Source: a virus
Lineage: Duplodnaviria > Heunggongvirae > Uroviricota > Caudoviricetes
IMG/VR virus record: IMGVR_UViG_2541047822_000003
Reading direction: 5' to 3' (one strand)
Length of the DNA stretch: 53,032 bases
Under the pieces are notes generated by a model. The model ran no database searches, had not been told where the DNA came from, and was given only the letters and a program-made list of their open reading frames with translations. Positions 8,985 to 27,971 of this stretch are shown here, one piece after another; the stretch's first letter is position 1, and each line of letters starts with the position of its first letter. The position numbers and the translations under genes are program-made.

Positions 8985-10055
8985 ATGGCTAACGCCTGGC
9001 TCAGATTATGGCATGACATGCCAAATGACCCTAAGTGGCGAACAATTGCCAGGGTGTCAGGACAGCCAATTGCAACAGTGATGGCAGTGTATATCCACCT
9101 CCTGGTGAGCGCGTCACGAAATGTCACGCGAGGTCACATTGATGTCACGACAGAAGATTTGGCAAGTGCGCTCGACGTGACAGAAGAGGTAATTGATTCA
9201 ATTTTGCAGACGATGCAGGGGCGGGTACTTGATGGTGATTTAATCACTGGATGGGAAAAACGCCAGGTGCTTAAAGAGGACAACGGCAATATTTCGCAAA
9301 CCGCAAAATCTCCTGCAGAGCGCAAGAGGGCGCAGCGAGAGAGGGAAAGAAAGCGGGAACAAAATGGCGATTGTCACGGCGCGTCACGAAATGTCACGCA
9401 CATGTCACGACGAGTCACGACAGATAAAGATACAGATAAAGATACAGATCAAGAAGATCAAAACACTATGGTCCATGGCGTAAAAAACGCCACGAACCAG
9501 GCAGGGGATGTTCAGACCGTCAATCTTGGTCAGCCAGCAGGCACGACACCGGAAGCCGATTCAGCGTATGCGCTGAAAGCCGATTCGGGCGCTGTGCAGC
9601 AGGTGATGACCGCAAGGGCGGAGCAATCACACCAACTGCAGCAGCCTGAAGCCGATTCCGCCATTCAGCGGGAAGCCGATCGGGTAGTCCCGGAAAACAC
9701 CGGGCAGTCTGTGGGACGAGTGGATTATCCGGATGTGTTCGAACAGGTCTGGCGGGAGTACCCGTTGCGTGCTGGGGCAAACCCGAAGAAATCCGCTTTC
9801 AGTGCCTGGAAGGCCAGATTACGCGAGGGGGTGCCACCAGAGGCCATGCTGGATGGCGTGAGGCGTTACGCAAGATACTTGGCGGCTACCGGGAAAACGG
9901 GAACGGAATTTGTTCAGCGAGCGACGACGTTTTTTGGACCGGACCGGAATTTTGAGAACCCCTGGTTGCTCCCGGTAAGCGGCACGAACAACCAGCGTTG
10001 TGTGAATCATATTTCTGAACCGGATAACGAAATTCCGCCGGGCTTCAGGGGGTAA
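8985..10055 (+). CDS. Replication initiator, lambda O-like (replisome-organizer N-terminal domain)
   Basis: N-terminus MANAWLRLWHDMPNDPKWRTIARVSG... resembles phage replisome-organizer domains; the gene contains two iteron clusters and an acidic TDKDTDKDTDQEDQ linker. ATG 8985 preceded by AGAGG. Confidence 0.7.
   Translation: MANAWLRLWHDMPNDPKWRTIARVSGQPIATVMAVYIHLLVSASRNVTRGHIDVTTEDLASALDVTEEVIDSILQTMQGRVLDGDLITGWEKRQVLKEDNGNISQTAKSPAERKRAQRERERKREQNGDCHGASRNVTHMSRRVTTDKDTDKDTDQEDQNTMVHGVKNATNQAGDVQTVNLGQPAGTTPEADSAYALKADSGAVQQVMTARAEQSHQLQQPEADSAIQREADRVVPENTGQSVGRVDYPDVFEQVWREYPLRAGANPKKSAFSAWKARLREGVPPEAMLDGVRRYARYLAATGKTGTEFVQRATTFFGPDRNFENPWLLPVSGTNNQRCVNHISEPDNEIPPGFRG
9108..9150 (+). 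repeat. Iteron cluster 1 (4 x GTCAC[G/A] units) inside the O-like gene
   Basis: gcgcGTCACGaaatGTCACGcgagGTCACAttgatGTCACGac read directly; the first 21 bp recur exactly at 9379-9399. Confidence 0.7.
9371..9420 (+). repeat. Iteron cluster 2 (5 x GTCACG units) inside the O-like gene
   Basis: ttGTCACGgcgcGTCACGaaatGTCACGcacatGTCACGacgaGTCACGa read directly; candidate origin (ori) iterons. Confidence 0.7.
9421..9445 (+). repeat. Tandem direct repeat CAGATAAAGATA x2
   Basis: cagataaagatacagataaagatacagatc immediately after iteron cluster 2; encodes the acidic DKDTDKDTD linker. Confidence 0.6.
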
Positions 10056-10095
10056 GTGTTAATTTCTGGTCATGAGGTAATTTTCAGGAGGGCTT

Positions 10096-10518
10096 GTGGC
10101 AAAAGTTTTTACACAAGAAGAGCGGGAAAAAATTAAAGGGCAGGTTCTTGAACTCGTACGCCAGAGTGGACGCGAGACGTTACGACAACTGGAAGCTAAA
10201 ACTGGGGCAACAAGATATCTGATGAGCGTTCTGGCCAGAGAGCTGGTTGCCAGTGGCGATGTATACAATTCTGGCTACGGGTTATTCCCGTCTGAACAGG
10301 CTCGTAAAGACTGGCAAAATGCCCGCAAAAAATTATCGAGGGCAAAGCTGAAGAAACCGGTTGTGGTTGATCCGGACCTTATCTGGTCATTACCTGACGG
10401 AGAAATACGTCGCTACGACAGTCGCCTAAACATAATCTGTCGCGAGTGCCGGAAGAGCGAAGTTATGCAGCGCATATTGTCGTTTTATCAGGGGGATGTT
10501 CGGTATTTATTGAAGTGA
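10096..10518 (+). CDS. Hypothetical protein of the replication module
   Basis: 140-aa ORF with GTG start preceded by AGGAGG; downstream of the O-like gene; no recognisable motif. Confidence 0.5.
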   Translation: MAKVFTQEEREKIKGQVLELVRQSGRETLRQLEAKTGATRYLMSVLARELVASGDVYNSGYGLFPSEQARKDWQNARKKLSRAKLKKPVVVDPDLIWSLPDGEIRRYDSRLNIICRECRKSEVMQRILSFYQGDVRYLLK

Positions 10519-10574
10519 CGAGATTAAAGTGCATTAGTTCAGATGCAAATTGACATTTTGTGGCACAGGGTAGA

Positions 10575-10602
10575 GCTAGCGTGGTTGTCCGCTTTGTGCC
10601 AA
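10575..10602 (+). repeat. 28-bp palindrome-like junction element, copy A (ttgtccgcttt-GTGCCA-agagcagacgc)
   Basis: 11-6-11 architecture with GTGCCA core, shared with copies at 14258-14285 and 15424-15451; lies 250 bp upstream of the BCCT gene. Confidence 0.55.
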
Positions 10603-10852
10603 GAGCAGACGCTGGTAATTCGTGCCTAATATACTTCACTTAACTTATATCCCAGCTTTGATACAGATCATACAAATTAAATGCCCCAGTAATTGGCAGG
10701 CTGAGTAACTTAAAACTCCTTAGAATATAGGATGATTTGTATCGGCACTCATTCCACCATGCATTCCGATTAACCCCGCATAGCCAGTTGAACTTTGCTA
10801 CTCTGTGAGAGGTAGTACCTTCTATCCAGTGCGGATTTAATTAATGGAATAA

Positions 10853-12856
10853 ATGATTATGAGTGAAAATGATACAACCCCAAAGAAGTCTACAAGCCAG
10901 ATTAACAAAGCGGTATTCTTTACATCTGCTTTGCTAATTTTCCTTCTTGTCGCCTTTGCCGCCGTATTCCCGGATGTCGCCGACAAAAATTTTAAACTAC
11001 TTCAGCAACAAATCTTCACGAATGCCAGCTGGTTCTACATACTTGCTGTGGCCCTGATTTTACTGAGCGTCACGTTCCTTGGACTCTCACGTTACGGTGA
11101 TATAAAGCTGGGCCCAGACCATGCGCAGCCTGATTTCAGCTACCACTCCTGGTTCGCGATGCTTTTTTCGGCAGGGATGGGGATCGGCCTGATGTTCTTT
11201 GGCGTTGCCGAACCTGTGATGCATTATCTTTCGCCACCTGTCGGCACTCCAGAGACCGTTGCGGCAGCGAAGGAAGCCATGCGCCTGACGTTCTTCCACT
11301 GGGGTCTGCACGCATGGGCAATTTATGCCATCGTGGCGCTGATTCTGGCCTTTTTCAGTTACCGTCACGGTCTGCCTTTAACGCTGCGTTCTGCGCTCTA
11401 TCCCATTATCGGCGATCGCATTTACGGGCCTATAGGCCACGCGGTTGATATCTTCGCCGTGATAGGCACTGTCTTTGGCGTTGCAACATCGCTGGGTTAC
11501 GGTGTATTGCAGGTGAATGCCGGTTTGAACCATCTTTTCGGCGTGCCCATCAATGAAACGGTACAGGTCATTTTGATCGTGGTCATCACGGGGTTAGCGA
11601 CGATTTCGGTGGTGTCCGGCCTGGACAAGGGAATACGCATCCTGTCTGAGCTTAATCTGGGCCTGGCGGTGTTGCTCCTGGCGCTGGTCTTGTGCCTGGG
11701 TCCCACTGTGCTTCTGCTGAAGTCATTTGTGGAAAATACGGGTGGTTATCTGTCGGAACTGGTGAGTAAAACGTTCAACCTTTACGCGTATGAACCCAAG
11801 TCGAGCAACTGGCTGGGGGGCTGGACATTATTATACTGGGGATGGTGGCTTTCATGGTCGCCGTTTGTAGGTATGTTCATTGCACGCGTTTCCCGCGGCA
11901 GGACAATTCGTGAGTTCGTGACTGGCGTGTTGTTTGTTCCCGCCGGCTTTACGCTCATGTGGATGACGGTGTTTGGAAACAGCGCCATCTATCTCATCAT
12001 GAACCAGGGCGCCACTGACCTCGCCAATACCGTTCAGCAGGATGTTGCGCTTGCCCTGTTTAATTTCCTGGAGCATTTCCCGTTCTCTTCCGTGCTGTCA
12101 TTCATTGCAATGGCGATGGTCATCGTCTTCTTTGTAACGTCTGCTGATTCGGGGGCAATGGTTGTGGATACTCTGGCATCAGGTGGGGTGGCAAACACGC
12201 CCGTCTGGCAGCGAATTTTCTGGGCATCGCTCATGGGCGTTGTTGCTATTGCCCTGCTGATCGCAGGGGGGCTGAGTGCGTTGCAAACCGTAACGATAGC
12301 GAGTGCATTGCCCTTCTCAGTTATCTTATTAATATCCATATACGGACTGTTAAAAGCCCTGCGTCGGGATTTGACCAAGCGTGAAAGCCTTAGCATGGCG
12401 ACTATTGCTCCTACGGCTGCACGTAACCCAATTCCCTGGCAGAGAAGGTTACGCAATATCGCGTATTTGCCGAAGCGCTCTCTTGTGAAACGTTTTATGG
12501 ACGACATTATCCAACCCGCCATGACGCTGGTTCAGGAGGAACTTAACAAGCAGGGAACGATAAGCCACATCAGTGACGCCGCCGAGGATCGTATTCGCCT
12601 TGAAGTCGATTTGGGCAACGAGCTGAATTATATATATGAAGTGAGGCTTCGCGGGTATAACTCACCGACCTTCGCGCTCGCTGCGCTGGATAATGATGAG
12701 CAGCAGAGTGAACAACATCGATATTATCGCGCTGAAGTCTATCTCAAAGAGGGCGGCCAAAATTATGATGTAATGGGCTGGAATCAGGAACAGCTGATTA
12801 ATGACATACTGGACCAGTACGAAAAACACCTGCACTTCCTGCATCTGGTTCGTTAA
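10853..12856 (+). CDS. BCCT-family transporter, BetT-like (choline/betaine-type osmoprotectant uptake)
   Basis: 667-aa polytopic membrane protein with the BCCT signature GWTLLYWGWWLSWSPFVGMFIARVSRGRTIREF and a BetT-like C-terminus (DILDQYEKHLHFLHL). Alternative start ATG 10859. Confidence 0.8.
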   Translation: MIMSENDTTPKKSTSQINKAVFFTSALLIFLLVAFAAVFPDVADKNFKLLQQQIFTNASWFYILAVALILLSVTFLGLSRYGDIKLGPDHAQPDFSYHSWFAMLFSAGMGIGLMFFGVAEPVMHYLSPPVGTPETVAAAKEAMRLTFFHWGLHAWAIYAIVALILAFFSYRHGLPLTLRSALYPIIGDRIYGPIGHAVDIFAVIGTVFGVATSLGYGVLQVNAGLNHLFGVPINETVQVILIVVITGLATISVVSGLDKGIRILSELNLGLAVLLLALVLCLGPTVLLLKSFVENTGGYLSELVSKTFNLYAYEPKSSNWLGGWTLLYWGWWLSWSPFVGMFIARVSRGRTIREFVTGVLFVPAGFTLMWMTVFGNSAIYLIMNQGATDLANTVQQDVALALFNFLEHFPFSSVLSFIAMAMVIVFFVTSADSGAMVVDTLASGGVANTPVWQRIFWASLMGVVAIALLIAGGLSALQTVTIASALPFSVILLISIYGLLKALRRDLTKRESLSMATIAPTAARNPIPWQRRLRNIAYLPKRSLVKRFMDDIIQPAMTLVQEELNKQGTISHISDAAEDRIRLEVDLGNELNYIYEVRLRGYNSPTFALAALDNDEQQSEQHRYYRAEVYLKEGGQNYDVMGWNQEQLINDILDQYEKHLHFLHLVR

Positions 12857-12863
12857 CAGCAAC

Positions 12864-12890
12864 ATGCCGCCACAGAGGCGGCATTTATTT
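12864..12890 (+). terminator. Rho-independent terminator-like hairpin after the BCCT gene
   Basis: ATGCCGCC-acaga-GGCGGCAT followed by TTATTT, 8 nt after the BCCT stop. Confidence 0.6.
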
Positions 12891-12919
12891 ATCCCGGCTG
12901 CAATATGAGGGAATGCAGA

Positions 12920-14197
12920 ATGATTTCACGCTGGAAATGGATGCTGAAGCAGACATTTAAAAAACTATGGTTCAGGGCAACGTTATTCGCAATTGTCGCA
13001 ATAATAACGGCCCTTTTATCAATTCTTTTTAAATCAATGATACCTGAGTCGGTTTCCGTGAAGGTTGGTGCGGAAGCAGTCGATAACATTCTGAACATAC
13101 TGGCATCGAGTATGCTGGCAGTGACCACATTTTCGCTGAGCATCATGGTCACAGCCTACGGTTCAGCCACTACTAATGTGACTCCCAGAGCTACTCGTTT
13201 AGTTGTTGAAGACGTCACCACACAAAATGTACTGGCCACCTTCATCGGTTCTTTTCTCTTCAGTCTGGTAGGGATTATTGCCCTCAATATGGGAGCTTAT
13301 GGAGAAAGGGGGAGAGTCATTTTATTCATTGTAACACTGGTTGTCATTGCCTTAATCCTCATCACATTGCTTCGCTGGATACAGCATTTGACCTCTCTGG
13401 GGAGGGTTGGTGAGACAACGGCAAAAGTAGAACAGGCGGCCATCGAAACATTTATTGCGAGAGCAAGAAATCCCTGTCTCGGCGGATATCCATGGCTTGA
13501 GAACAATGAACAGCCGAAAGGAACGGTTGCAGTTTATCCGAAAAAGATTGGCTATGTTGAATATGTTGATATGGTGAAACTCAGCAAGCTGCTGACCAAT
13601 GATCCCCGTCATGTATACCTCGTGGCGCAGCCGGGCAGTTTCATACATCCGTCCACGCCAGTTTTGTACCTGAGTCAGGGCCAGGAGTCATCAATCAGCA
13701 CCGATTTACTTGAGACGATTATTGTCTCGGATGTACGTTCATTTGCTCAGGACCCCCGATTTTGTCTTAGCGTCATGGCCGAAATAGCCTGCCGAGCCCT
13801 TTCCCCCGCAGTGAACGATCCTGGAACCGCCATTGATGTCATTGGCAGAGGTGTACGTATACTTTCCGCTTACGCGCAGAATAAATCTGATGAAATAGAA
13901 GTGAAATATCCTTCTGTACATGTTGCACCACTTCAGAATAACGATCTACTTGAAGACTTTTTCTCACCTGTTGCGCGCGATGGTGCCAGTATGAGGGAAA
14001 TTCAGATAAGGGTACTTAAAGGACTGTCGATGCTGAGTAAGGGTTGGCCTGGAATTTTTGCTGAAGCCGCACAAACCCTAGCATTTGAAACATTAGAGCA
14101 TGCTACTCGTGCTGACCATATAGATTCTGATAGATATCTAATAAAATCAATTTATTATAATTTATTTAGTGGCGAAGATTCTAATAAAAAACCATAG
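12920..14197 (+). CDS. Membrane protein, DUF2254-like (4 N-terminal TM helices plus soluble C-terminal domain)
   Basis: ORF 12905-14197; start preferred at ATG 12920 (GAGGGA 7 nt upstream). Four hydrophobic helices then a soluble domain; family call is from recall, not a search. Confidence 0.65.
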   Translation: MISRWKWMLKQTFKKLWFRATLFAIVAIITALLSILFKSMIPESVSVKVGAEAVDNILNILASSMLAVTTFSLSIMVTAYGSATTNVTPRATRLVVEDVTTQNVLATFIGSFLFSLVGIIALNMGAYGERGRVILFIVTLVVIALILITLLRWIQHLTSLGRVGETTAKVEQAAIETFIARARNPCLGGYPWLENNEQPKGTVAVYPKKIGYVEYVDMVKLSKLLTNDPRHVYLVAQPGSFIHPSTPVLYLSQGQESSISTDLLETIIVSDVRSFAQDPRFCLSVMAEIACRALSPAVNDPGTAIDVIGRGVRILSAYAQNKSDEIEVKYPSVHVAPLQNNDLLEDFFSPVARDGASMREIQIRVLKGLSMLSKGWPGIFAEAAQTLAFETLEHATRADHIDSDRYLIKSIYYNLFSGEDSNKKP

Positions 14198-14257
14198 TTG
14201 CGGAGCAAGCGATACGGTTGTTGGCAAGTCAAGGGCAAAGCATTCGCGTGAGAGTGG

Positions 14258-14285
14258 GCGTCTGCTTTGTGCCATGAGCGGACAT
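14258..14285 (+). repeat. 28-bp palindrome-like junction element, copy B (gcgtctgcttt-GTGCCA-tgagcggacat)
   Basis: Same 11-6-11/GTGCCA architecture; 61 bp downstream of the DUF2254 stop. Confidence 0.55.
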
Positions 14286-14489
14286 GGGCCTCCTCAGCAG
14301 TTCTGCAGACAGCTCTCGTGTAGTAAGAAACTGGAAAGCAGGGTTTCGATATCTGGTCATGAGTCTAAGATAGTCAGGACTGCGGCAGAATCGGATGTTA
14401 CTAAGCTTGGATCAACAGTATCTTCGATGTAAGAAAATTACCTTGAAAATATTTGGGGCCAAGGTTACGCTAATAAAAAATTGTCAAGT

Positions 14490-14522
14490 AAAACGCAATT
14501 ATTATATTAATAGTTGCGTTTT
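14490..14522. terminator. AT-rich hairpin between convergent genes (AAAACGCAA-15 nt-TTGCGTTTT)
   Basis: 9-bp inverted repeat read directly between the DUF2254 gene and the 3' end of the 225-aa gene; weak stem with long loop. Confidence 0.3.
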
Positions 14523-14556
14523 AATAATATCTTGCAGATGTAATAATATTGGGTGT

Positions 14557-15234
14557 TTATGTCAAACCTGCTCTACGTCCTCTTGACATAATTTCCTTCT
14601 GATAAGGAATTGTTCCATCTTTAATAAGCCTTGAGAGCTCGTTCAATCCACCATCAATTCTCTGAGAGACGTTAAAGAGAATATTTCTATTTGCTAGCAC
14701 AGGGATTAAGTATTCATACTCCTCATAGTCATCACAAAAATCCATAGCACACATACCCCACTCAGCATTTATAAATGGATCTATAACCTCATAAATAAAT
14801 TGAGATGTCAGCATTGAGACATCTTTATTAGGAGCAGCAAAATGTTGAATAGAGTTCCTCAATTTCCCAAAATCATTGTATAACTTAAGATTATTAATCT
14901 TCTTTCCAGTTGCAGCCCAAACCTTCTCAGGCAACTCTGAATAAGTAATTGTTTGCCCTTTTTCTAATAAGCTTTCAAAATCAAGAAGCCCTGTAGTTTT
15001 ATTTACGCAATCAGCTGTTGATTTTGGTAATGACTCAAAAATTAAAAGAGGGTGTTCCTGAGCAAGACGAGCTTTGAGAAAAATCTCACAAGCATGGGCT
15101 GCCTGTAAGACGCCCAATTGTGACCACATAGAGTTACTCATATCATAAAAATGAGCAAGGTAGTTGGCATGAGCAAGTGAACCTGCTCCCAAAACAATCA
15201 TATGCTCATGAACTTTTTTTAAATTAACATCCAT
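14557..15234 (-). CDS. Hypothetical protein with a HEPN-like Rx4H motif (putative RNase / abortive-infection-type protein)
   Basis: 225-aa ORF in AT-rich DNA; GAGGAG RBS 7 nt upstream; predicted alpha-helical with motif GKLRNSIQHF (R-N-x3-H) typical of HEPN catalytic sites. Motif-level inference only. Confidence 0.6.
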   Translation of the reverse strand: MDVNLKKVHEHMIVLGAGSLAHANYLAHFYDMSNSMWSQLGVLQAAHACEIFLKARLAQEHPLLIFESLPKSTADCVNKTTGLLDFESLLEKGQTITYSELPEKVWAATGKKINNLKLYNDFGKLRNSIQHFAAPNKDVSMLTSQFIYEVIDPFINAEWGMCAMDFCDDYEEYEYLIPVLANRNILFNVSQRIDGGLNELSRLIKDGTIPYQKEIMSRGRRAGLT

Positions 15235-15360
15235 TTAACACTCCTCAAAAAACATTTGTTTACGTTATCAAAAAAAGATGGGTATTGCCCACATTTTAAG
15301 ACGATTATATTTAAATTTGTTATGTGGTGTTACTTAAGTTTCGGATGAATAATATGTCTG

Positions 15361-15395
15361 CTCTTCGCTCTTCGCTCTTCGCTCTTCGCTCTTCG
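15361..15395 (+). repeat. Tandem heptanucleotide repeat (CTCTTCG)x5 plus a degenerate sixth unit
   Basis: ctcttcgctcttcgctcttcgctcttcgctcttcgctcaccg read directly; flanked by GTCTGCT (15356-15362) and GCGGAC (15402-15407), resembling arms of the junction palindrome. Confidence 0.85.
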
Positions 15396-15423
15396 CTCAC
15401 CGCGGACCTTCAGCTTCGTTAAC

Positions 15424-15451
15424 ATGTCCGCTCCGTGCCAGGAGCGGACAT
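15424..15451 (+). repeat. Perfect 28-bp palindrome, copy H (ATGTCCGCTCC-GTGCCA-GGAGCGGACAT)
   Basis: 11-bp perfect inverted arms around a 6-bp GTGCCA core; no flanking T-tract, so not a canonical intrinsic terminator; lies between the two minus-strand cargo genes. Confidence 0.8.
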
Positions 15452-15582
15452 TAATGAGTTAAGTTCTGAAAGTAGCATTAAATACGCACATGCTTTTCCT
15501 AATAACTCGATTGTCATTTATATCGTTAAACAGTTCCGGAGACAACTCTGACTTACAGGAATATCGCTAAGCCTCTGCCTCC

Positions 15583-16464
15583 CTAAGCAATATCCTGATT
15601 GCTGAGTTGAGGCATTAATCGCTCAAATAATTCATCACTTTCATAGGGGATGTTATTAATATGCCGAGAATAAATTAACCCTCTAGGACAAAGCTTGGAC
15701 AAAGAACTTTCACATAAAACACCTATACATTTTTTGTTTTCCCCTGCCATAAAGTCTTCTAAATTCCTCAAGATAAAATTTCGTGACAACTCACGATGTT
15801 CGCTTATTGCCATTCTCGCATCTTCAGAATTAATGAGAGACAGGTTAGGAAGCAAATCAGTAACATTAACGGCCACCATGCCTAGATTTTTAAGTGATGA
15901 GCTATCCTTTATCCTGCGCACGATCTGCTGGTTTGCAACTTTTATGTTTTTAGATAGTTTTTTTAACGACTTAACTCGTTTGCATTCTACAAAAAGAATT
16001 TTGCCGTCAGAGAGTTTCACTTCGATATCACAAATGCTTTTAAGAGAAATTTTATATCCTGCACGTAGAAATCTTGCAGCCATTGACAACTCAAACAGAA
16101 AGTCCCTTGCAGGATCGTTCTCAGAAGTAGCACGAAATTCTTGACCAGTGATAACCTTCTTTATTTGATCGAGATACTCCTTGATATCAAGCCATTTAAG
16201 ATCATTGTAAACTCTTATAATTTCATTAGCTTCCACGTGAGAATTCATCATCTCCTTCATAAAGGCAACTAAATTTTCATCGGGTGTATCTTTGAAAATT
16301 TTTTCACCATTTGATAGTGCTTTCAATTTTTGAAGGTTTTTGTGGTATACCCCATATCTTGTTACTGCAAACCTAAAACCCAAACTATCGAACCAAGTAC
16401 AAACCTCTTCAAATTTAGTTAACAAACCTGAAAACTCATGCTCGTATATTTCCTTGCCTTCCAT
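15583..16464 (-). CDS. Hypothetical protein with a PD-(D/E)xK-like nuclease core motif
   Basis: ORF runs to 16542 (TTG); start preferred at ATG 16464 (MEGKEIYEHEF, AAAGAGAAG upstream). Motif pattern E(FLFELSMAARFL)...D(ICDIEVKL)-SDG-KILFVECK fits a beta-hairpin D...ExK nuclease core. AT-rich. Inference. Confidence 0.6.
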   Translation of the reverse strand: MEGKEIYEHEFSGLLTKFEEVCTWFDSLGFRFAVTRYGVYHKNLQKLKALSNGEKIFKDTPDENLVAFMKEMMNSHVEANEIIRVYNDLKWLDIKEYLDQIKKVITGQEFRATSENDPARDFLFELSMAARFLRAGYKISLKSICDIEVKLSDGKILFVECKRVKSLKKLSKNIKVANQQIVRRIKDSSSLKNLGMVAVNVTDLLPNLSLINSEDARMAISEHRELSRNFILRNLEDFMAGENKKCIGVLCESSLSKLCPRGLIYSRHINNIPYESDELFERLMPQLSNQDIA

Positions 16465-16704
16465 ATTCTTCTCTTTAAATAAACCCAGATTCGTATTAGT
16501 GCTTGTCAAATTCATAGGGGCTGTGCCCCTTAAAATCATCAAGTGGGAGCTTGACCTGTAAAGATTGTGAAGCTATTCGCATCTCGATTAAATGCTCTAT
16601 ATAGTTGACCAGACCAATTTATACCAAACGGCAGAATAAAAGAAGGAATCCTCTCTGCACTTAACTAGTCATTCCTTGACTACTGTGATTAAGATCACTT
16701 CCAA

Positions 16705-16730
16705 AGTCCGCTTATCGCTCAAAGCGGACT
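16705..16730 (+). repeat. Palindrome related to the junction element (AGTCCGCTT-atcgctca-AAGCGGACT)
   Basis: 9-bp perfect arms sharing GTCCGCT/AGCGGAC with copies A, B and H but with a different 8-bp centre; upstream of the PD-(D/E)xK-like gene. Confidence 0.5.
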
Positions 16731-16908
16731 AGAAGGTTAGCTTGCGTCGGACTTGGCGTATTTAAAGAAGTGCTGGTGGTGACTGGTTGTTGTGTTCCAT
16801 TTCTACAGAACAAAATCACAGAAACTATACCCAATAGTTATATTGAATCAATGATGAGACAGCCTCATATTTATCAGAACTGGTGTACGTCCAATACAGG
16901 AGGTTGTC

Positions 16909-16998
16909 GTGCTGGTTCTCAAATGTGCGCTAGCTATTGCGGCTGTAATGGCAATTTATTGTCTTGCTGTTGTTCTTATGGAGCGGCTTTCTGATTGA
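16909..16998 (+). CDS. Candidate small hydrophobic peptide (29 aa, type I toxin-like)
   Basis: GTG start 5 nt after a perfect AGGAGG (16898-16903); product MLVLKCALAIAAVMAIYCLAVVLMERLSD is one predicted TM helix with a charged tail. Speculative; overlaps a 74-aa Cys-rich frame that I rejected. Confidence 0.3.
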   Translation: MLVLKCALAIAAVMAIYCLAVVLMERLSD

Positions 16999-17145
16999 TT
17001 ACATACTGGCTAGAAAAAAGGTGTTACCTTGGTTTATCTTTGTCCGGCAAGGTGCGCTCATTAATCTTAAGTAAATTTATTGCTCAAGTATTCAGATTAC
17101 TTCTTATGGTTGAAGTCTCCTGTCAATGTAGAACCAATATATTTA

Positions 17146-17182
17146 CAAAAATGAGACCCGTCGGGGATAGCCCTGCCGGGTC
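17146..17182 (-). terminator. Rho-independent terminator-like hairpin downstream of the 17213-17551 gene
   Basis: GACCCG...CGGGTC stem followed by a T-run on the minus strand (plus-strand caaaaatga). Confidence 0.45.
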
Positions 17183-17212
17183 TGACTGTTAAAGCATTTT
17201 TAATATGATCAT

Positions 17213-17551
17213 CTATTTTTTGGTGCTATAGACTTTTTCGCCCGAGAAGTCTGGAGCGACCCAAAAGTTAATATTAAACTGAGCATCATCGCTTAGTTCA
17301 ACACGGTGCCAGTATTGTGGTGGGCTTGTTGCAAAAGCGCCAGCATTAATGACTACTTTTATCTCCGGTTCAGTAGCATTCTCATCAGTAAAACCATAAT
17401 ATGTTACAGTGCCTTCCATTACGCACAACTGCCCAAAAACACCTGCTGCTGTATTATGATGTGTTAATAACGCTGAAGGTACGTTCTCTTTTGTGAAGAA
17501 CGGAGTTGAGCGTTTGATTACCCAATCTTTAGGAATTCTCTTGTGTGTCAT
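17213..17551 (-). CDS. Small conserved protein, possibly cupin/DUF1971-like (function unknown)
   Basis: ORF 17213-17575; start at ATG 17551 (MTHKRIPKDW) with strong GGAGG RBS; family assignment is tentative. Confidence 0.6.
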   Translation of the reverse strand: MTHKRIPKDWVIKRSTPFFTKENVPSALLTHHNTAAGVFGQLCVMEGTVTYYGFTDENATEPEIKVVINAGAFATSPPQYWHRVELSDDAQFNINFWVAPDFSGEKVYSTKK

Positions 17552-17876
17552 AACCACCTCCTCAAAAACATGCATTATAAATGCGTGTTTTTGAGGGTTA
17601 TGTCAAGCTGTTATGAAACACATAATTGATATGTTGATTAGAGGAGAAGATATAATAAATATGGTTGTTTTTCGTATAACTATTTGTTTTACTTTTAGTT
17701 TATGCATTCTGTGTGTTAGGAATAAGTTATTAAAGTTTAATCAAAAAATCTCGATGTAGTCCACATAGATTATTGTTACTGAACCTTACTGTGTGTATTA
17801 GTTGTGTTCTGAAATTTCAGCTTAATTATTTATGATGTATTTTTTAACGATAAATATTTTCCCAGGATACCTTTAC

Positions 17877-17903
17877 TGTGTATATAAATAAATTATATAC
17901 ACA
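17877..17903. repeat. Perfect 10-bp inverted repeat TGTGTATATA-aataaat-TATATACACA in an AT-rich ORF-free region
   Basis: Read directly inside the ~780-bp AT-rich segment 17580-18360, which has no convincing ORF. Confidence 0.6.
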
Positions 17904-18364
17904 TAAATAATGTAAAGGCGTCCTTTTAGATATATCTTATCAAATGTTAATGACTTGAGTGGGAAATATGATTCCAGCAACTTATCATGTGGCTACTTTA
18001 TAAAAATAATGCCCATATAAAACAACAAGCGAAAAGGATTACGGATAAAAAAGGAGCGAGATGTGCGAACTTGTTATTTTCCATGTTTAACCACCTTAAA
18101 TAATTGATGATGACGGGATGATTGCATCTGTAATGCTTTTATTGAAATGTTATGATAAAAAAGAACTTTTGCATAACATTAAAATGTAATTTATCTAATC
18201 GTTTTTAATAATAAATGTCGTATTTCTATCCTTGTACCAGCTATTTGATATGTAGTGTTTGTTCATGCTATGTGGGGCTTTACACCATAGCCAGTTTATT
18301 TATACTTTATTCGTCAGCCTGAACAACTGGCATCTGCTGCGCTGCGCCATCGAGAGATTGAGAA

Positions 18365-18964
18365 ATGGCGCATATACAACTGGTCAAACAAACTTCTTCT
18401 GGTTTACTTCTCCCGGCGACGCCGGAGAGTTGCGATTTTCTGCATCAAATCAAAATAGGTGAGTGGATACACGCAGACTTTAAGCGTGTGCGTAACTACG
18501 CATTCCACAAGCGTTTTTTCAAACTCCTGCAACTGGGATTCGATTACTGGACTCCGGTCGGTGGGGCGATCACGCCTCGCGAACGAGAACTGCTGTCTGG
18601 TTTCGTTGATTACCTGTGCGAATCAGTTGGTCGGGAACACACGCCAGCCCTGAGTGATGCCGCAGAGCAATACCTTAACACCGTTGCGACTCGTAGAACC
18701 CGGGATACGGCGTTGCTAAAGTCGTTTGAGGCTTTCCGCGAGTGGGTAACCATTCAGGCCGGATTTTACACCGAGCATATTTATCCGGACGGTAGCCGTG
18801 GGCGTCGGGCAAAATCCATCGCTTTTGCGAATATGGACGAAGTCGAGTTTCAGCAGGTTTATAAATCTGTACTGAATGTGCTGTGGAACTGGATTCTGTT
18901 TCGTAAATTCTCCTCTCAGGAGGAAGTTGAAAATGTGGCCGCACAACTACTGGAGTTTGCGTAA
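18365..18964 (+). CDS. nin-region protein, NinB/YbcN-like (putative recombination/DNA-binding)
   Basis: 199-aa ORF at the head of a three-gene block ending in the Q-like gene; assignment by position and weak motif resemblance. Confidence 0.5.
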   Translation: MAHIQLVKQTSSGLLLPATPESCDFLHQIKIGEWIHADFKRVRNYAFHKRFFKLLQLGFDYWTPVGGAITPRERELLSGFVDYLCESVGREHTPALSDAAEQYLNTVATRRTRDTALLKSFEAFREWVTIQAGFYTEHIYPDGSRGRRAKSIAFANMDEVEFQQVYKSVLNVLWNWILFRKFSSQEEVENVAAQLLEFA

Positions 18965-26876: not shown

Positions 26877-27971
26877 ATGAGCAGACCGGACTGGGGGGCG
26901 TTGCAGCAGGAGTATATTGCTGAATACACCCGCTCCGGTATATCTCCGGTGGCATGGTGTGAAGCAAGGGGACTGAATTACGCAACAGCCCGTCGTTACA
27001 TCAAAAAAACTCCGAAAAATGCGCAGACAGAAATGTGCAAAACTGCGCAAAAAAGTGCGCAGAAAAAATCTGCGCAGACTGCACAAAAGCGGAACGAAAA
27101 ATCTCAGGAAAAAAAGCCAGTATTCGATGCGGGCCTGAATGAGGGCGACGCGGAGGAATTTTCGTTCTGTCCCGATGAATTCGGCATTTCTGACCAGCAG
27201 GCTAAGTTTGCGATGCTTGTTGCTCAGGGTAAAAAGCCGACAGAGGCGTACCGACTAGCCGGTTATGAGGGGCAAGGTGCGACAGCTAACAGCAACGCCA
27301 GTCGTATGCTTAGAAATGCCAGGGTTTTTCGCGCTATCAGCTACTTCCGCAATCAGTACCAGAAACGCTATACCGCAGACCTGGATTTACTAGTGAGTCA
27401 GTTGATGGCTATTGTCCTGGCCGACCCCAATCAGCTTGCACAATTTCGCCGTGTTAACTGCCGTTATTGCTGGGGCGAGAATCATCTCTACCAGTGGCGC
27501 GATATAGCAGAATTCGACAAGGCAGCGGCGCAGGCTTCCAGAGATGGCAAACCCGAACCGGAATATGGAGGCCTCGGCTTTGTTGATAACGCCATACCCA
27601 ATCCGGACTGCCCGAAGTGCTGCGGTGAGGGAACGGGACAGCTTTATATGGCTGATACCACTCTGCTTGATGGGGATGCGCGGCAATTATATGCAGGGGC
27701 AAAATTCGGAAAATTCGGCGTTGAGATCCTGCTGGAGGATAAGGCTGCCGCCCGGCGTGAATTGTTGCGTTTGTTTTCTGCTGGCGGGGCTTTATGTGCA
27801 GATAAACGGCTACAGGAACTGGAAATTGAACGGCGCAGAATGGAAAACCAGAAGCTGCGCAAAGAGATCGAAACGGTGGAAGATAATGAACATCCCCAGC
27901 CTGTGGCGATCAATATTAATGTGGTTGATGCCAGAGTAAGGAGTGATGAAGATGATCTCTCCGACGCTTAA
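26877..27971 (+). CDS. Terminase small subunit (N-terminal HTH)
   Basis: 364 aa; N-terminus with HTH-like segment (GISPVAWCEARGLNYATARRYIKK); immediately upstream of the large subunit. Confidence 0.7.
   Translation: MSRPDWGALQQEYIAEYTRSGISPVAWCEARGLNYATARRYIKKTPKNAQTEMCKTAQKSAQKKSAQTAQKRNEKSQEKKPVFDAGLNEGDAEEFSFCPDEFGISDQQAKFAMLVAQGKKPTEAYRLAGYEGQGATANSNASRMLRNARVFRAISYFRNQYQKRYTADLDLLVSQLMAIVLADPNQLAQFRRVNCRYCWGENHLYQWRDIAEFDKAAAQASRDGKPEPEYGGLGFVDNAIPNPDCPKCCGEGTGQLYMADTTLLDGDARQLYAGAKFGKFGVEILLEDKAAARRELLRLFSAGGALCADKRLQELEIERRRMENQKLRKEIETVEDNEHPQPVAININVVDARVRSDEDDLSDA

Follow-up and report, generated by a model that had tools for sequence, protein, structure and literature searches.

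A hypervariable heptanucleotide repeat at a cassette-junction palindrome in a Rac-type prophage of Escherichia coli

Short-unit repeats whose copy number varies among close isolates are known from the Escherichia coli and Shigella loci used in multiple-locus variable-number tandem repeat (VNTR) analysis (MLVA), many of which have no known function. To our knowledge, hypervariable short tandem repeats are uncommon in E. coli, and the species is, so far as we are aware, generally regarded as lacking phase variation based on simple sequence repeats (SSRs). In Haemophilus influenzae, the (ATCTTTC)n repeats of hmw1A and hmw2A lie in the transcribed 5' untranslated region (5'-UTR), take part in a long, RNase III-processed hairpin with a G-rich region, comprise at least 11 units and have a measured inverse effect on expression (PMC12721329). 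A TAAA tract likewise lies upstream of the core promoter of nadA in Neisseria meningitidis (PMC4235727). Two further systems, the inverted repeats of the Z/fun region of phage P2 (AJ512680.1) and the direct repeats of ToxIN/AbiQ, share other features with the locus described here. That locus is a heptanucleotide tract in IMG/VR record IMGVR_UViG_2541047822_000003, a stretch of 53,032 nucleotides (the window) that holds a Rac-type lambdoid prophage integrated beside ttcA. We found that the tract is a hypermutable VNTR and represents a new hypervariable SSR locus. Comparison with its relatives suggests that it arose by slippage, seeded in a palindrome at the edge of a gene cassette within the cargo of the prophage, an account to which, taken as a whole, we assign a probability of roughly three in four.

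The tract consists of five GCTCTTC units followed by GCTC and occupies positions 15360-15398, with no strand assigned. Tandem Repeats Finder (TRF) reported a period of 7, 5.6 copies, 100% matches, 0 indels and the consensus GCTCTTC. A first-pass annotation made from the sequence alone had described five CTCTTCG units between GTCTGCT and GCGGAC, upstream of a 225-aa gene. The array proved real (15361-15395 in that register), both flanks are present (15356-15362 and 15402-15407), and the tract covers the positions 126-164 bp upstream of the gene's ATG. A 310-aa gene ends on one side of it (stop at 15583) and the 225-aa gene begins on the other (start at 15234); on the minus strand, the coding strand of these neighbours, it reads (GAAGAGC)n. 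Two adjacent units with at most one mismatch occurred 4 times, all inside the tract, versus 0.01 expected, and the array is therefore not due to chance. By TRF it is the sole perfect array with at least 4 copies in the window, and ~1.2 Mb of fetched enterobacterial prophage DNA yielded one further perfect array (period 5-9, at least 4 copies). At least 3 units of the heptamer were present in 8 of 2.9 million viral contigs, this locus being one of the 8. A scan of metagenomes for the left flank of the tract returned 0 contigs, and the corresponding viral scan returned a single contig (L160). Literature searches with the repeat sequence or the palindrome sequence found no relevant paper. The accompanying remark that each unit junction creates a GCTCTTC restriction site found no support, given that the heptamer occurs 5 times outside the tract and 10 times in the window as a whole (including the 5 in the tract) versus ~6.6 expected; outside the tract it is neither enriched nor avoided.

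We next compared the tract among its carriers. Of 5,426 complete E. coli genomes, 8 matched the 2.4-kb query region (at least 99.6% identity, at least 80% of the query covered), and the lengths of these 8 matches differ by multiples of 7. The complete genomes carry 14, 15, 5, 5, 6, 4, 6 and 4 units, further assemblies carry 7, 5, 7, 5 and 5, and an IMG/VR contig carries 6. Together with the window (5 units) these make up a sample of 15 independent sequences, among which 4 units were found in 2 sequences, 5 in 6, 6 in 3, 7 in 2, and 14 and 15 in 1 each. All alleles differ by whole units only and every unit is perfect, so that each has the four or more head-to-tail short units of high purity by which an SSR or VNTR is recognized. 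The flanks are by comparison nearly uniform, with only ~16 variable sites across carriers in ~8.4 kb. Three two-member subclades, each defined by shared single-nucleotide polymorphisms (SNPs), are nevertheless split by copy number (5/14, 5/6 and 6/5), and the unmarked base haplotype includes 4-, 5- and 15-unit alleles. Since subclades that share SNPs differ in copy number, the 35-bp tract has changed approximately as often as several kb of flank together. Copy number thus varies between strains, as the first-pass annotation had anticipated, from 4 to 15 units on near-identical flanks, and the invariance that it had named as the contrary outcome was not seen.

Like the hmw1A/hmw2A repeats, the tract is built of perfect, pyrimidine-rich 7-bp units, is intergenic and upstream of a gene, varies in copy number among close isolates, and has a unit too long for mismatch repair. 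Unlike them, it is predicted to lie upstream of the promoter and to be unpaired in RNA, and it ranges from 4 to 15 units. With the nadA tract (PMC4235727) it shares a position upstream of the core promoter, where its length would change the spacing between distal elements and RNA polymerase. For nadA the distal operators (NadR, IHF) are defined and expression classes have been measured, whereas here all helical phases are seen. The likeness to MLVA loci lies in a short unit and in copy numbers that differ among close isolates; unlike those loci, the tract is restricted to a prophage carried by 8 of the 5,426 complete genomes.

The sequences on either side of the tract belong to a family of 24-bp palindromes with 7-bp arms (GTCYGCT/AGCRGAC) around a 10-nt loop, of which a regular-expression scan identified 5 members in the window versus 0.5 expected by shuffling. 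There are two loop types. Type A (YYGTGCCAWG) is represented by the elements that start at 10587, 14260 and 15426, and type B (YYTCGCTCAM) by the element at 16706 and by the tract-bearing element at 15356-15407. In the latter, the arms GTCTGCT (15356-15362) and CGCGGAC (15401-15407) are held apart by the repeat, which covers the end of the left arm and the loop. Reduced to one unit, the element becomes GTCTGCT-CTTCGCTCAC-CGCGGAC, a palindrome of 24 bp (7+10+7) of the same family as that at 16706-16729.

Close relatives of the surrounding cassette carry such a one-unit form. Citrobacter and two metagenomic or Logan contigs yielded copies that encode a 94%-identical protein (L096, L097 and L099 in our numbering; hereafter the Citrobacter-type copies). 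These keep the promoter region and the leader of the gene and have one unit at the position of the tract (GTGAGCGAAGAGCAGAC), the one-unit form being GTCCGCTGTGAGCGAAGAGCAGAC. On the coding strand it reads GTCCGCT-GTGAGCGAAG-AGCAGAC, in which the GAGC that precedes the unit produces an 11-bp stretch with period 7. This stretch, GCTCTTCGCTC, amounts to 1.6 units and is the proto-repeat; it takes in the last bases of the left arm and the beginning of the loop in the type B palindrome. Because close cassette relatives carry one unit at the same place, the tract is a lineage-specific expansion of the proto-repeat. TRF found no comparable repeat upstream of homologues of the 225-aa gene in 80 loci from other species. 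The suggestion that the repeat had expanded within another copy of a junction element is borne out by the 24-bp palindrome of the one-unit form and by its presence in the Citrobacter-type relatives. Upstream of their 225-aa homologue, these relatives also have an extra 44-bp segment without counterpart in the E. coli copy. This segment repeats part of the right half of the type B element, such that GAAGAGCAGACAT...ATCC is present twice.

Taken together, these findings fit a sequence of events in which the 11-bp proto-repeat in the arm and loop of a type B palindrome would have seeded slippage, and slipped-strand mispairing would then have taken this E. coli lineage from a single copy of the unit to at least 4. 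Whole 7-bp units are now added and lost far more quickly than substitutions accumulate in the flanks. Loops of 7 nt are not corrected by E. coli mismatch repair; lying outside the range of that system, they would allow the instability to persist. The expansion sets the palindrome arms 31-108 bp apart and likewise shifts the upstream junction palindromes relative to the predicted promoter of the 225-aa gene. That the tract changes by slippage during replication is our inference.

Together with the tract-bearing element, the remaining members of the palindrome family, none of which is assigned a strand, frame every cargo cassette of the prophage. The type A element at 10587-10610 lies at the border between phage backbone (a DUF977 gene) and BCCT/DUF2254 cargo, and that at 14260-14283 (GTCTGCT TTGTGCCATG AGCGGAC) forms the 3' boundary of the 225-aa cassette. 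An 18-bp linker, CTTCAGCTTCGTTAACAT, at 15408-15425 separates the tract-bearing type B element from a further type A element, palindrome H (15424-15451; core GTCCGCT CCGTGCCAGG AGCGGAC at 15426-15449), which follows the stop codon of the 310-aa gene at a distance of 133 bp. The unexpanded type B element (GTCCGCT TATCGCTCAA AGCGGAC, 16706-16729) is upstream of the 310-aa gene. The first-pass annotation had placed the tract directly beside a perfect palindrome. Palindrome H does lie 25 bp from the tract, but its perfect 11-bp arms are confined to the window and one other genome (CP195454). Position 15425, the second of its left arm, is T/C polymorphic, with ATGTCC in these two sequences and ACGTCC in the other 13, in which 9 consecutive perfect pairs are retained.

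Homology between the E. coli and Citrobacter-type copies begins after the left arm and 2-3 nt of type B, and homology among the E. coli, Citrobacter and L099 copies ends after TGGCAC in the type A element at 14260-14283; outside the two elements, the contexts of the three cassette copies are unrelated. Since homology starts inside type B and ends inside type A, the cassette is bounded by these elements. The 225-aa gene, its predicted promoter and its terminator accordingly make up a ~1.1-kb cassette whose 5' end is marked by B and whose 3' end is marked by A. The proposed link between the tract and cassette assembly is thereby upheld, the tract-bearing element being the 5' boundary of the 225-aa cassette.

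The same elements recur at junctions in many other phages. At least 120 viral contigs contain the type A pattern; among the matches listed there are ~60 different left and ~60 different right flanks, and identical flanks are joined to different partners exactly at the type A element. The DUF977 backbone flank, for example, joins different cargo in three contigs (L103, L105, L206). The BCCT/DUF2254 cargo, which begins at window position 10611 with GCTGGTAATTCGTGCC, is connected through type A to at least 3 backbones (L109, L153, L184), comprising a P2-type flank (L109, L153), the lambdoid DUF977 flank and one third; this pattern indicates exchange of the same BCCT/DUF2254 cassette between unrelated phages. 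Genes that such elements follow in other contigs include P2 gene D-like and umuC-like ones (L116, L102). B-linker-A composites such as that at 15356-15449, in which 14-24 nt separate type A from a type-B-like element on its left, were found in 11 of 79 distinct contexts, and a similar linker is present in those of L111, L130, L131, L164, L192 and L217. The fourth position of the arms shows no covariation (C/G 57, C/A 11, T/G 10, T/A 1), a distribution more in keeping with arms that reassort independently than with selection for a hairpin. The reassortment of flanks supports the view that type A and type B palindromes may be site-specific recombination sites for a dedicated recombinase.

For the Z region of P2, a 2004 article by Nilsson, Karlsson and Haggard-Ljungquist in Mol Biol Evol (PMID 12949155) reportedly proposes site-specific recombination in its title. 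In the GenBank entry for the Z region of P2-EC46 (AJ512680.1), these sequences are annotated as left and right inverted repeats around two lysogenic-conversion open reading frames (ORFs), and the right repeat, CTTCGCT CCTCGCTCAA AGCAGAC, is type B-like (compare also L131 and L164). The type A and type B palindromes correspond to the inner ends of the P2 repeats, and in both settings repeats bracket foreign genes with promoters of their own. Unlike the Z region, the window is a lambdoid (Rac-type) prophage and has an array of cassettes with B-linker-A junctions and one expanded SSR. Other identities considered for the palindromes were rejected. As integron attC sites, they have 24 bp and no R''/R' core sites (RYYYAAC/GTTRRRY); an Xer/dif-like 11-6-11 reading of palindrome H fails on arms that do not resemble the dif consensus; and a sigma-54 reading of the loop TGGCAC fails on the lack of TTGC at -12.

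We likewise considered how the tract is placed relative to transcription of the 225-aa gene. A consensus scan predicted a sigma-70 promoter on the minus strand at 15304-15333, with -35 GTAACA (15333-15328), an 18-nt spacer and -10 TATAAT (15309-15304), matching 10 of 12 positions. By consensus match, it is the sole minus-strand promoter-like site in the 225-aa/310-aa intergenic region, and its hexamers are kept as GTGACA and TCTAAT in the Citrobacter-type copies. The tract ends 26 bp from the predicted -35, which places the five-unit tract at approximately -63 to -100 from the predicted start site. The predicted leader contains a short terminator-like hairpin, GTGGGCAATACCCAT, followed by a run of seven T (15278-15292, minus strand). 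This hairpin, which falls between the predicted -10 and the ribosome-binding site and is unchanged in the Citrobacter-type copies, may be a leader attenuator. When RNA of the minus strand from 15460 to 15225 was folded, the tract was unpaired in both the minimum free energy and the centroid structures, palindrome H was the only strong hairpin, and the whole region had a z of -1.36. An RNA hairpin that includes the repeats, as in hmw1A/hmw2A, was rejected on the basis of this predicted fold. No relevant RNA family was returned when positions 10000-18500 were scanned against Rfam with E values up to 1.

The cargo block lies between the replication genes and nin/Q-type genes (DUF1367, DUF1364, DUF1133) of the prophage. 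Its plus strand carries genes for a BCCT transporter and DUF2254, and its minus strand the 225-aa gene, the 310-aa gene and DUF1971. The product of the 225-aa gene (14557-15234, minus strand) is probably a HEPN protein and ribonuclease (RNase)-like. The motif R126-N-S-I-Q-H131 is invariant (R126-N-x-x-Q-H131) in 22 diverse homologues and agrees with the R-x4-6-H pattern of HEPN proteins. Weak PADLOC matches were obtained to PDC-S64 (6e-7), Cas13a HEPN (7e-3) and DUF3644, and some sources name relatives 'HEPN AbiU2-like' or 'HEPN domain'. An AlphaFold2 (AF2) model is all-helical, with a predicted local distance difference test score (pLDDT) of 90, and Foldseek matched it weakly to HEPN toxins (E 0.75-5); the protein had no match in Pfam and no sequence match in PDB. 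The 310-aa gene (15583-16515, minus strand; 319 aa from an upstream TTG) forms a separate cassette and possibly encodes a PD-(D/E)xK/Mrr-like nuclease. It had no Pfam, PADLOC or PDB sequence match, and one relative is labelled 'Mrr domain-containing' in UniRef. Scans of both proteins against Pfam, PHROGs, NCBIfam and PADLOC returned the weak PADLOC matches to the 225-aa protein and nothing else. The first-pass annotation had placed the tract between two nuclease-motif genes, a label that suggests a gene pair. Such a pair was not supported, as tblastn found a relative of the 310-aa protein within 2.5 kb in 0 of the 80 other-species loci of 225-aa relatives, and a conserved two-gene system was consequently rejected. 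In the complete E. coli genomes the two cassettes occur only together (8 genomes).

The ~270 bp (14284-14556) that separate the 225-aa stop codon from the type A boundary are non-coding and ~95% conserved with the Citrobacter-type cassettes. They include a palindrome with 16-bp arms at 14489-14523, probably a terminator; a 43-aa ORF in this interval was excluded by a frameshifting 1-nt indel. Elsewhere in the window, imperfect 10-bp (x5) and 12-bp (x2.9) tandem repeats occur at 9372-9454 inside an ORF upstream of DUF977, which may be a replication gene with the repeats as origin iterons, and TRF found an imperfect 36-bp tandem repeat (2.1 copies, 80% matches) at 27015-27088.

As to what the tract does, the balance of the evidence tips towards a by-product of slippage with a modest effect at most. 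A selected function is most likely slight or absent, and a graded effect on transcription, suggested by the position of the tract, is possible as a secondary consequence. Several observations weigh against this reading. The allele spread looks bimodal (4-7 and 14-15, none between) in what is a small sample, and the genomes with the two long alleles each have an insertion sequence (IS) element in the neighbouring 310-aa cassette, a possible hint of selection. The tract also lies at approximately -63 to -100, where upstream SSRs modulate promoters (nadA; PMC4235727), and promoter-like sites in the scanned region, counted by consensus match only, number 11 versus 9.9 expected. In CP195454 (L001), IS1 is inside the 310-aa gene, with a target duplication at window 15894-15902, and in CP071328 (L002) IS903 is at window 16698-16706, touching the type B element. 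The 14- and 15-unit alleles are on different SNP backgrounds. None of the 13 short-allele sequences has an IS in the 310-aa cassette, and two of them have an IS3-family element downstream of the 225-aa gene. With n=2, the association between long alleles and IS elements is a lead only.

Next in rank we place a contingency locus or rheostat, in which repeat number would set the distance and helical phase between upstream elements, either the junction palindromes or read-through transcription, and the HEPN promoter, so that clonal cells would differ in the level of a putative toxic or defensive RNase. We hold this possibility tentatively. Phase-variable defence genes exist. The tract is hypermutable and comes to within 26 bp upstream of the -35 in the one promoter predicted for the downstream gene, whose product is probably a HEPN protein and weakly matches a defence candidate in PADLOC. 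There is also precedent in hmw1A, whose expression is inversely proportional to (ATCTTTC)n length (PMC12721329), and in nadA, which is modulated by upstream SSRs (PMC4235727). However, the repeat is absent from both close and distant homologous loci, and the 225-aa gene must therefore work without it. The tract is moreover outside the core promoter spacer, the ORF and the predicted 5'-UTR, and there is no hmw-like RNA hairpin that involves the repeats. Finally, the three helical phases occur at similar frequency (classes {4,7}, {5,14} and {6,15} in 4, 7 and 4 sequences), and since all three are populated, no face-of-helix constraint is visible. A stronger form of the idea, in which an SSR contingency switch would tune a prophage HEPN toxin or defence gene, with 4-7 and 14-15 units as two expression states and the long state linked to IS inactivation of the nuclease-like cassette, strikes us as unlikely.

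We give still less weight to a third reading, which is compatible with either a by-product or a regulatory role, and which we rank after both. Here, expansion would part the arms of a type B recombination site, inactivate the site and thereby fix the HEPN cassette beside the 310-aa cassette. The breaks in cassette homology exactly inside the elements and the reassortment of flanks at the elements in many contigs are in keeping with this proposal, as is the absence of covariation at arm position 4, which would be expected from crossing-over in the loop. The exclusive co-occurrence of the two cassettes in the 8 carriers among complete genomes is likewise in its favour, although this may reflect one recent clonal prophage, and no excision or exchange of a cassette was seen.

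A type III toxin-antitoxin system resembling ToxIN, with the repeats as RNA antitoxin and the leader hairpin and T-run as terminator, is very improbable. The order of repeats, terminator-like hairpin (15292-15278) and putative RNase gene superficially recalls toxI-toxN, and as in ToxIN/AbiQ direct tandem repeats lie upstream of an RNase-like gene with a hairpin between. However, the unit is 7 nt versus ~35 nt in ToxIN/AbiQ and ~34-45 nt as the range for such antitoxins, the predicted promoter is differently placed, between the repeats and the hairpin, and the repeat RNA is unstructured. The repeats are also dispensable in relatives, with one unit at 94% protein identity and none in the 80 more distant loci, and one-unit relatives and unit length together effectively refute this system.

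There is similarly little to recommend the placement of the repeat inside a small phase-variable ORF, either from a plus-strand ATG at 15354 (22 aa with 5 units) or from a minus-strand ATG/GTG at 15426 (32 aa). Both frames are open across the tract, and the minus-strand start has GGAG 5 nt upstream. In the Citrobacter-type copies, however, the corresponding frames are closed after a few codons, each of the three frames that follow the repeat ends after 10-30 codons, and the minus-strand ATG is GTG in 13 of 15 copies; these ORFs, not being conserved in one-unit relatives, were rejected. Least credible is an assembly artefact as the source of the copy-number differences, since, even though short-read k-mer assemblies break at the tract (Logan contig L229 ends within it), 8 of the sequences come from complete genomes in RefSeq, allele lengths differ by exact multiples of 7 and contain perfect units only, and the common alleles of 28-49 bp are shorter than usual assembly k-mers.

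Short-unit VNTRs and SSRs upstream of promoters are already known as a kind of feature, and junction palindromes were noted for P2 in 2004. What is new is this hypervariable E. coli locus, its derivation from a cassette-junction palindrome, and the palindrome cassette array in a lambdoid prophage. The tract is a ready-made, high-resolution typing marker for the lineage with this Rac-type prophage, and a natural test case for repeat instability in an enterobacterium proficient for mismatch repair. In its origin, a chance 11-bp periodicity across the arm and loop of a cassette-boundary palindrome sufficed to seed a microsatellite. The palindromes bracket cassettes both in a lambdoid prophage and at Citrobacter chromosomal sites, and suggest a system for the exchange of cassettes. 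Should the tract indeed modulate the HEPN gene, this would represent SSR-based population heterogeneity in a defence or toxin gene of an E. coli prophage.

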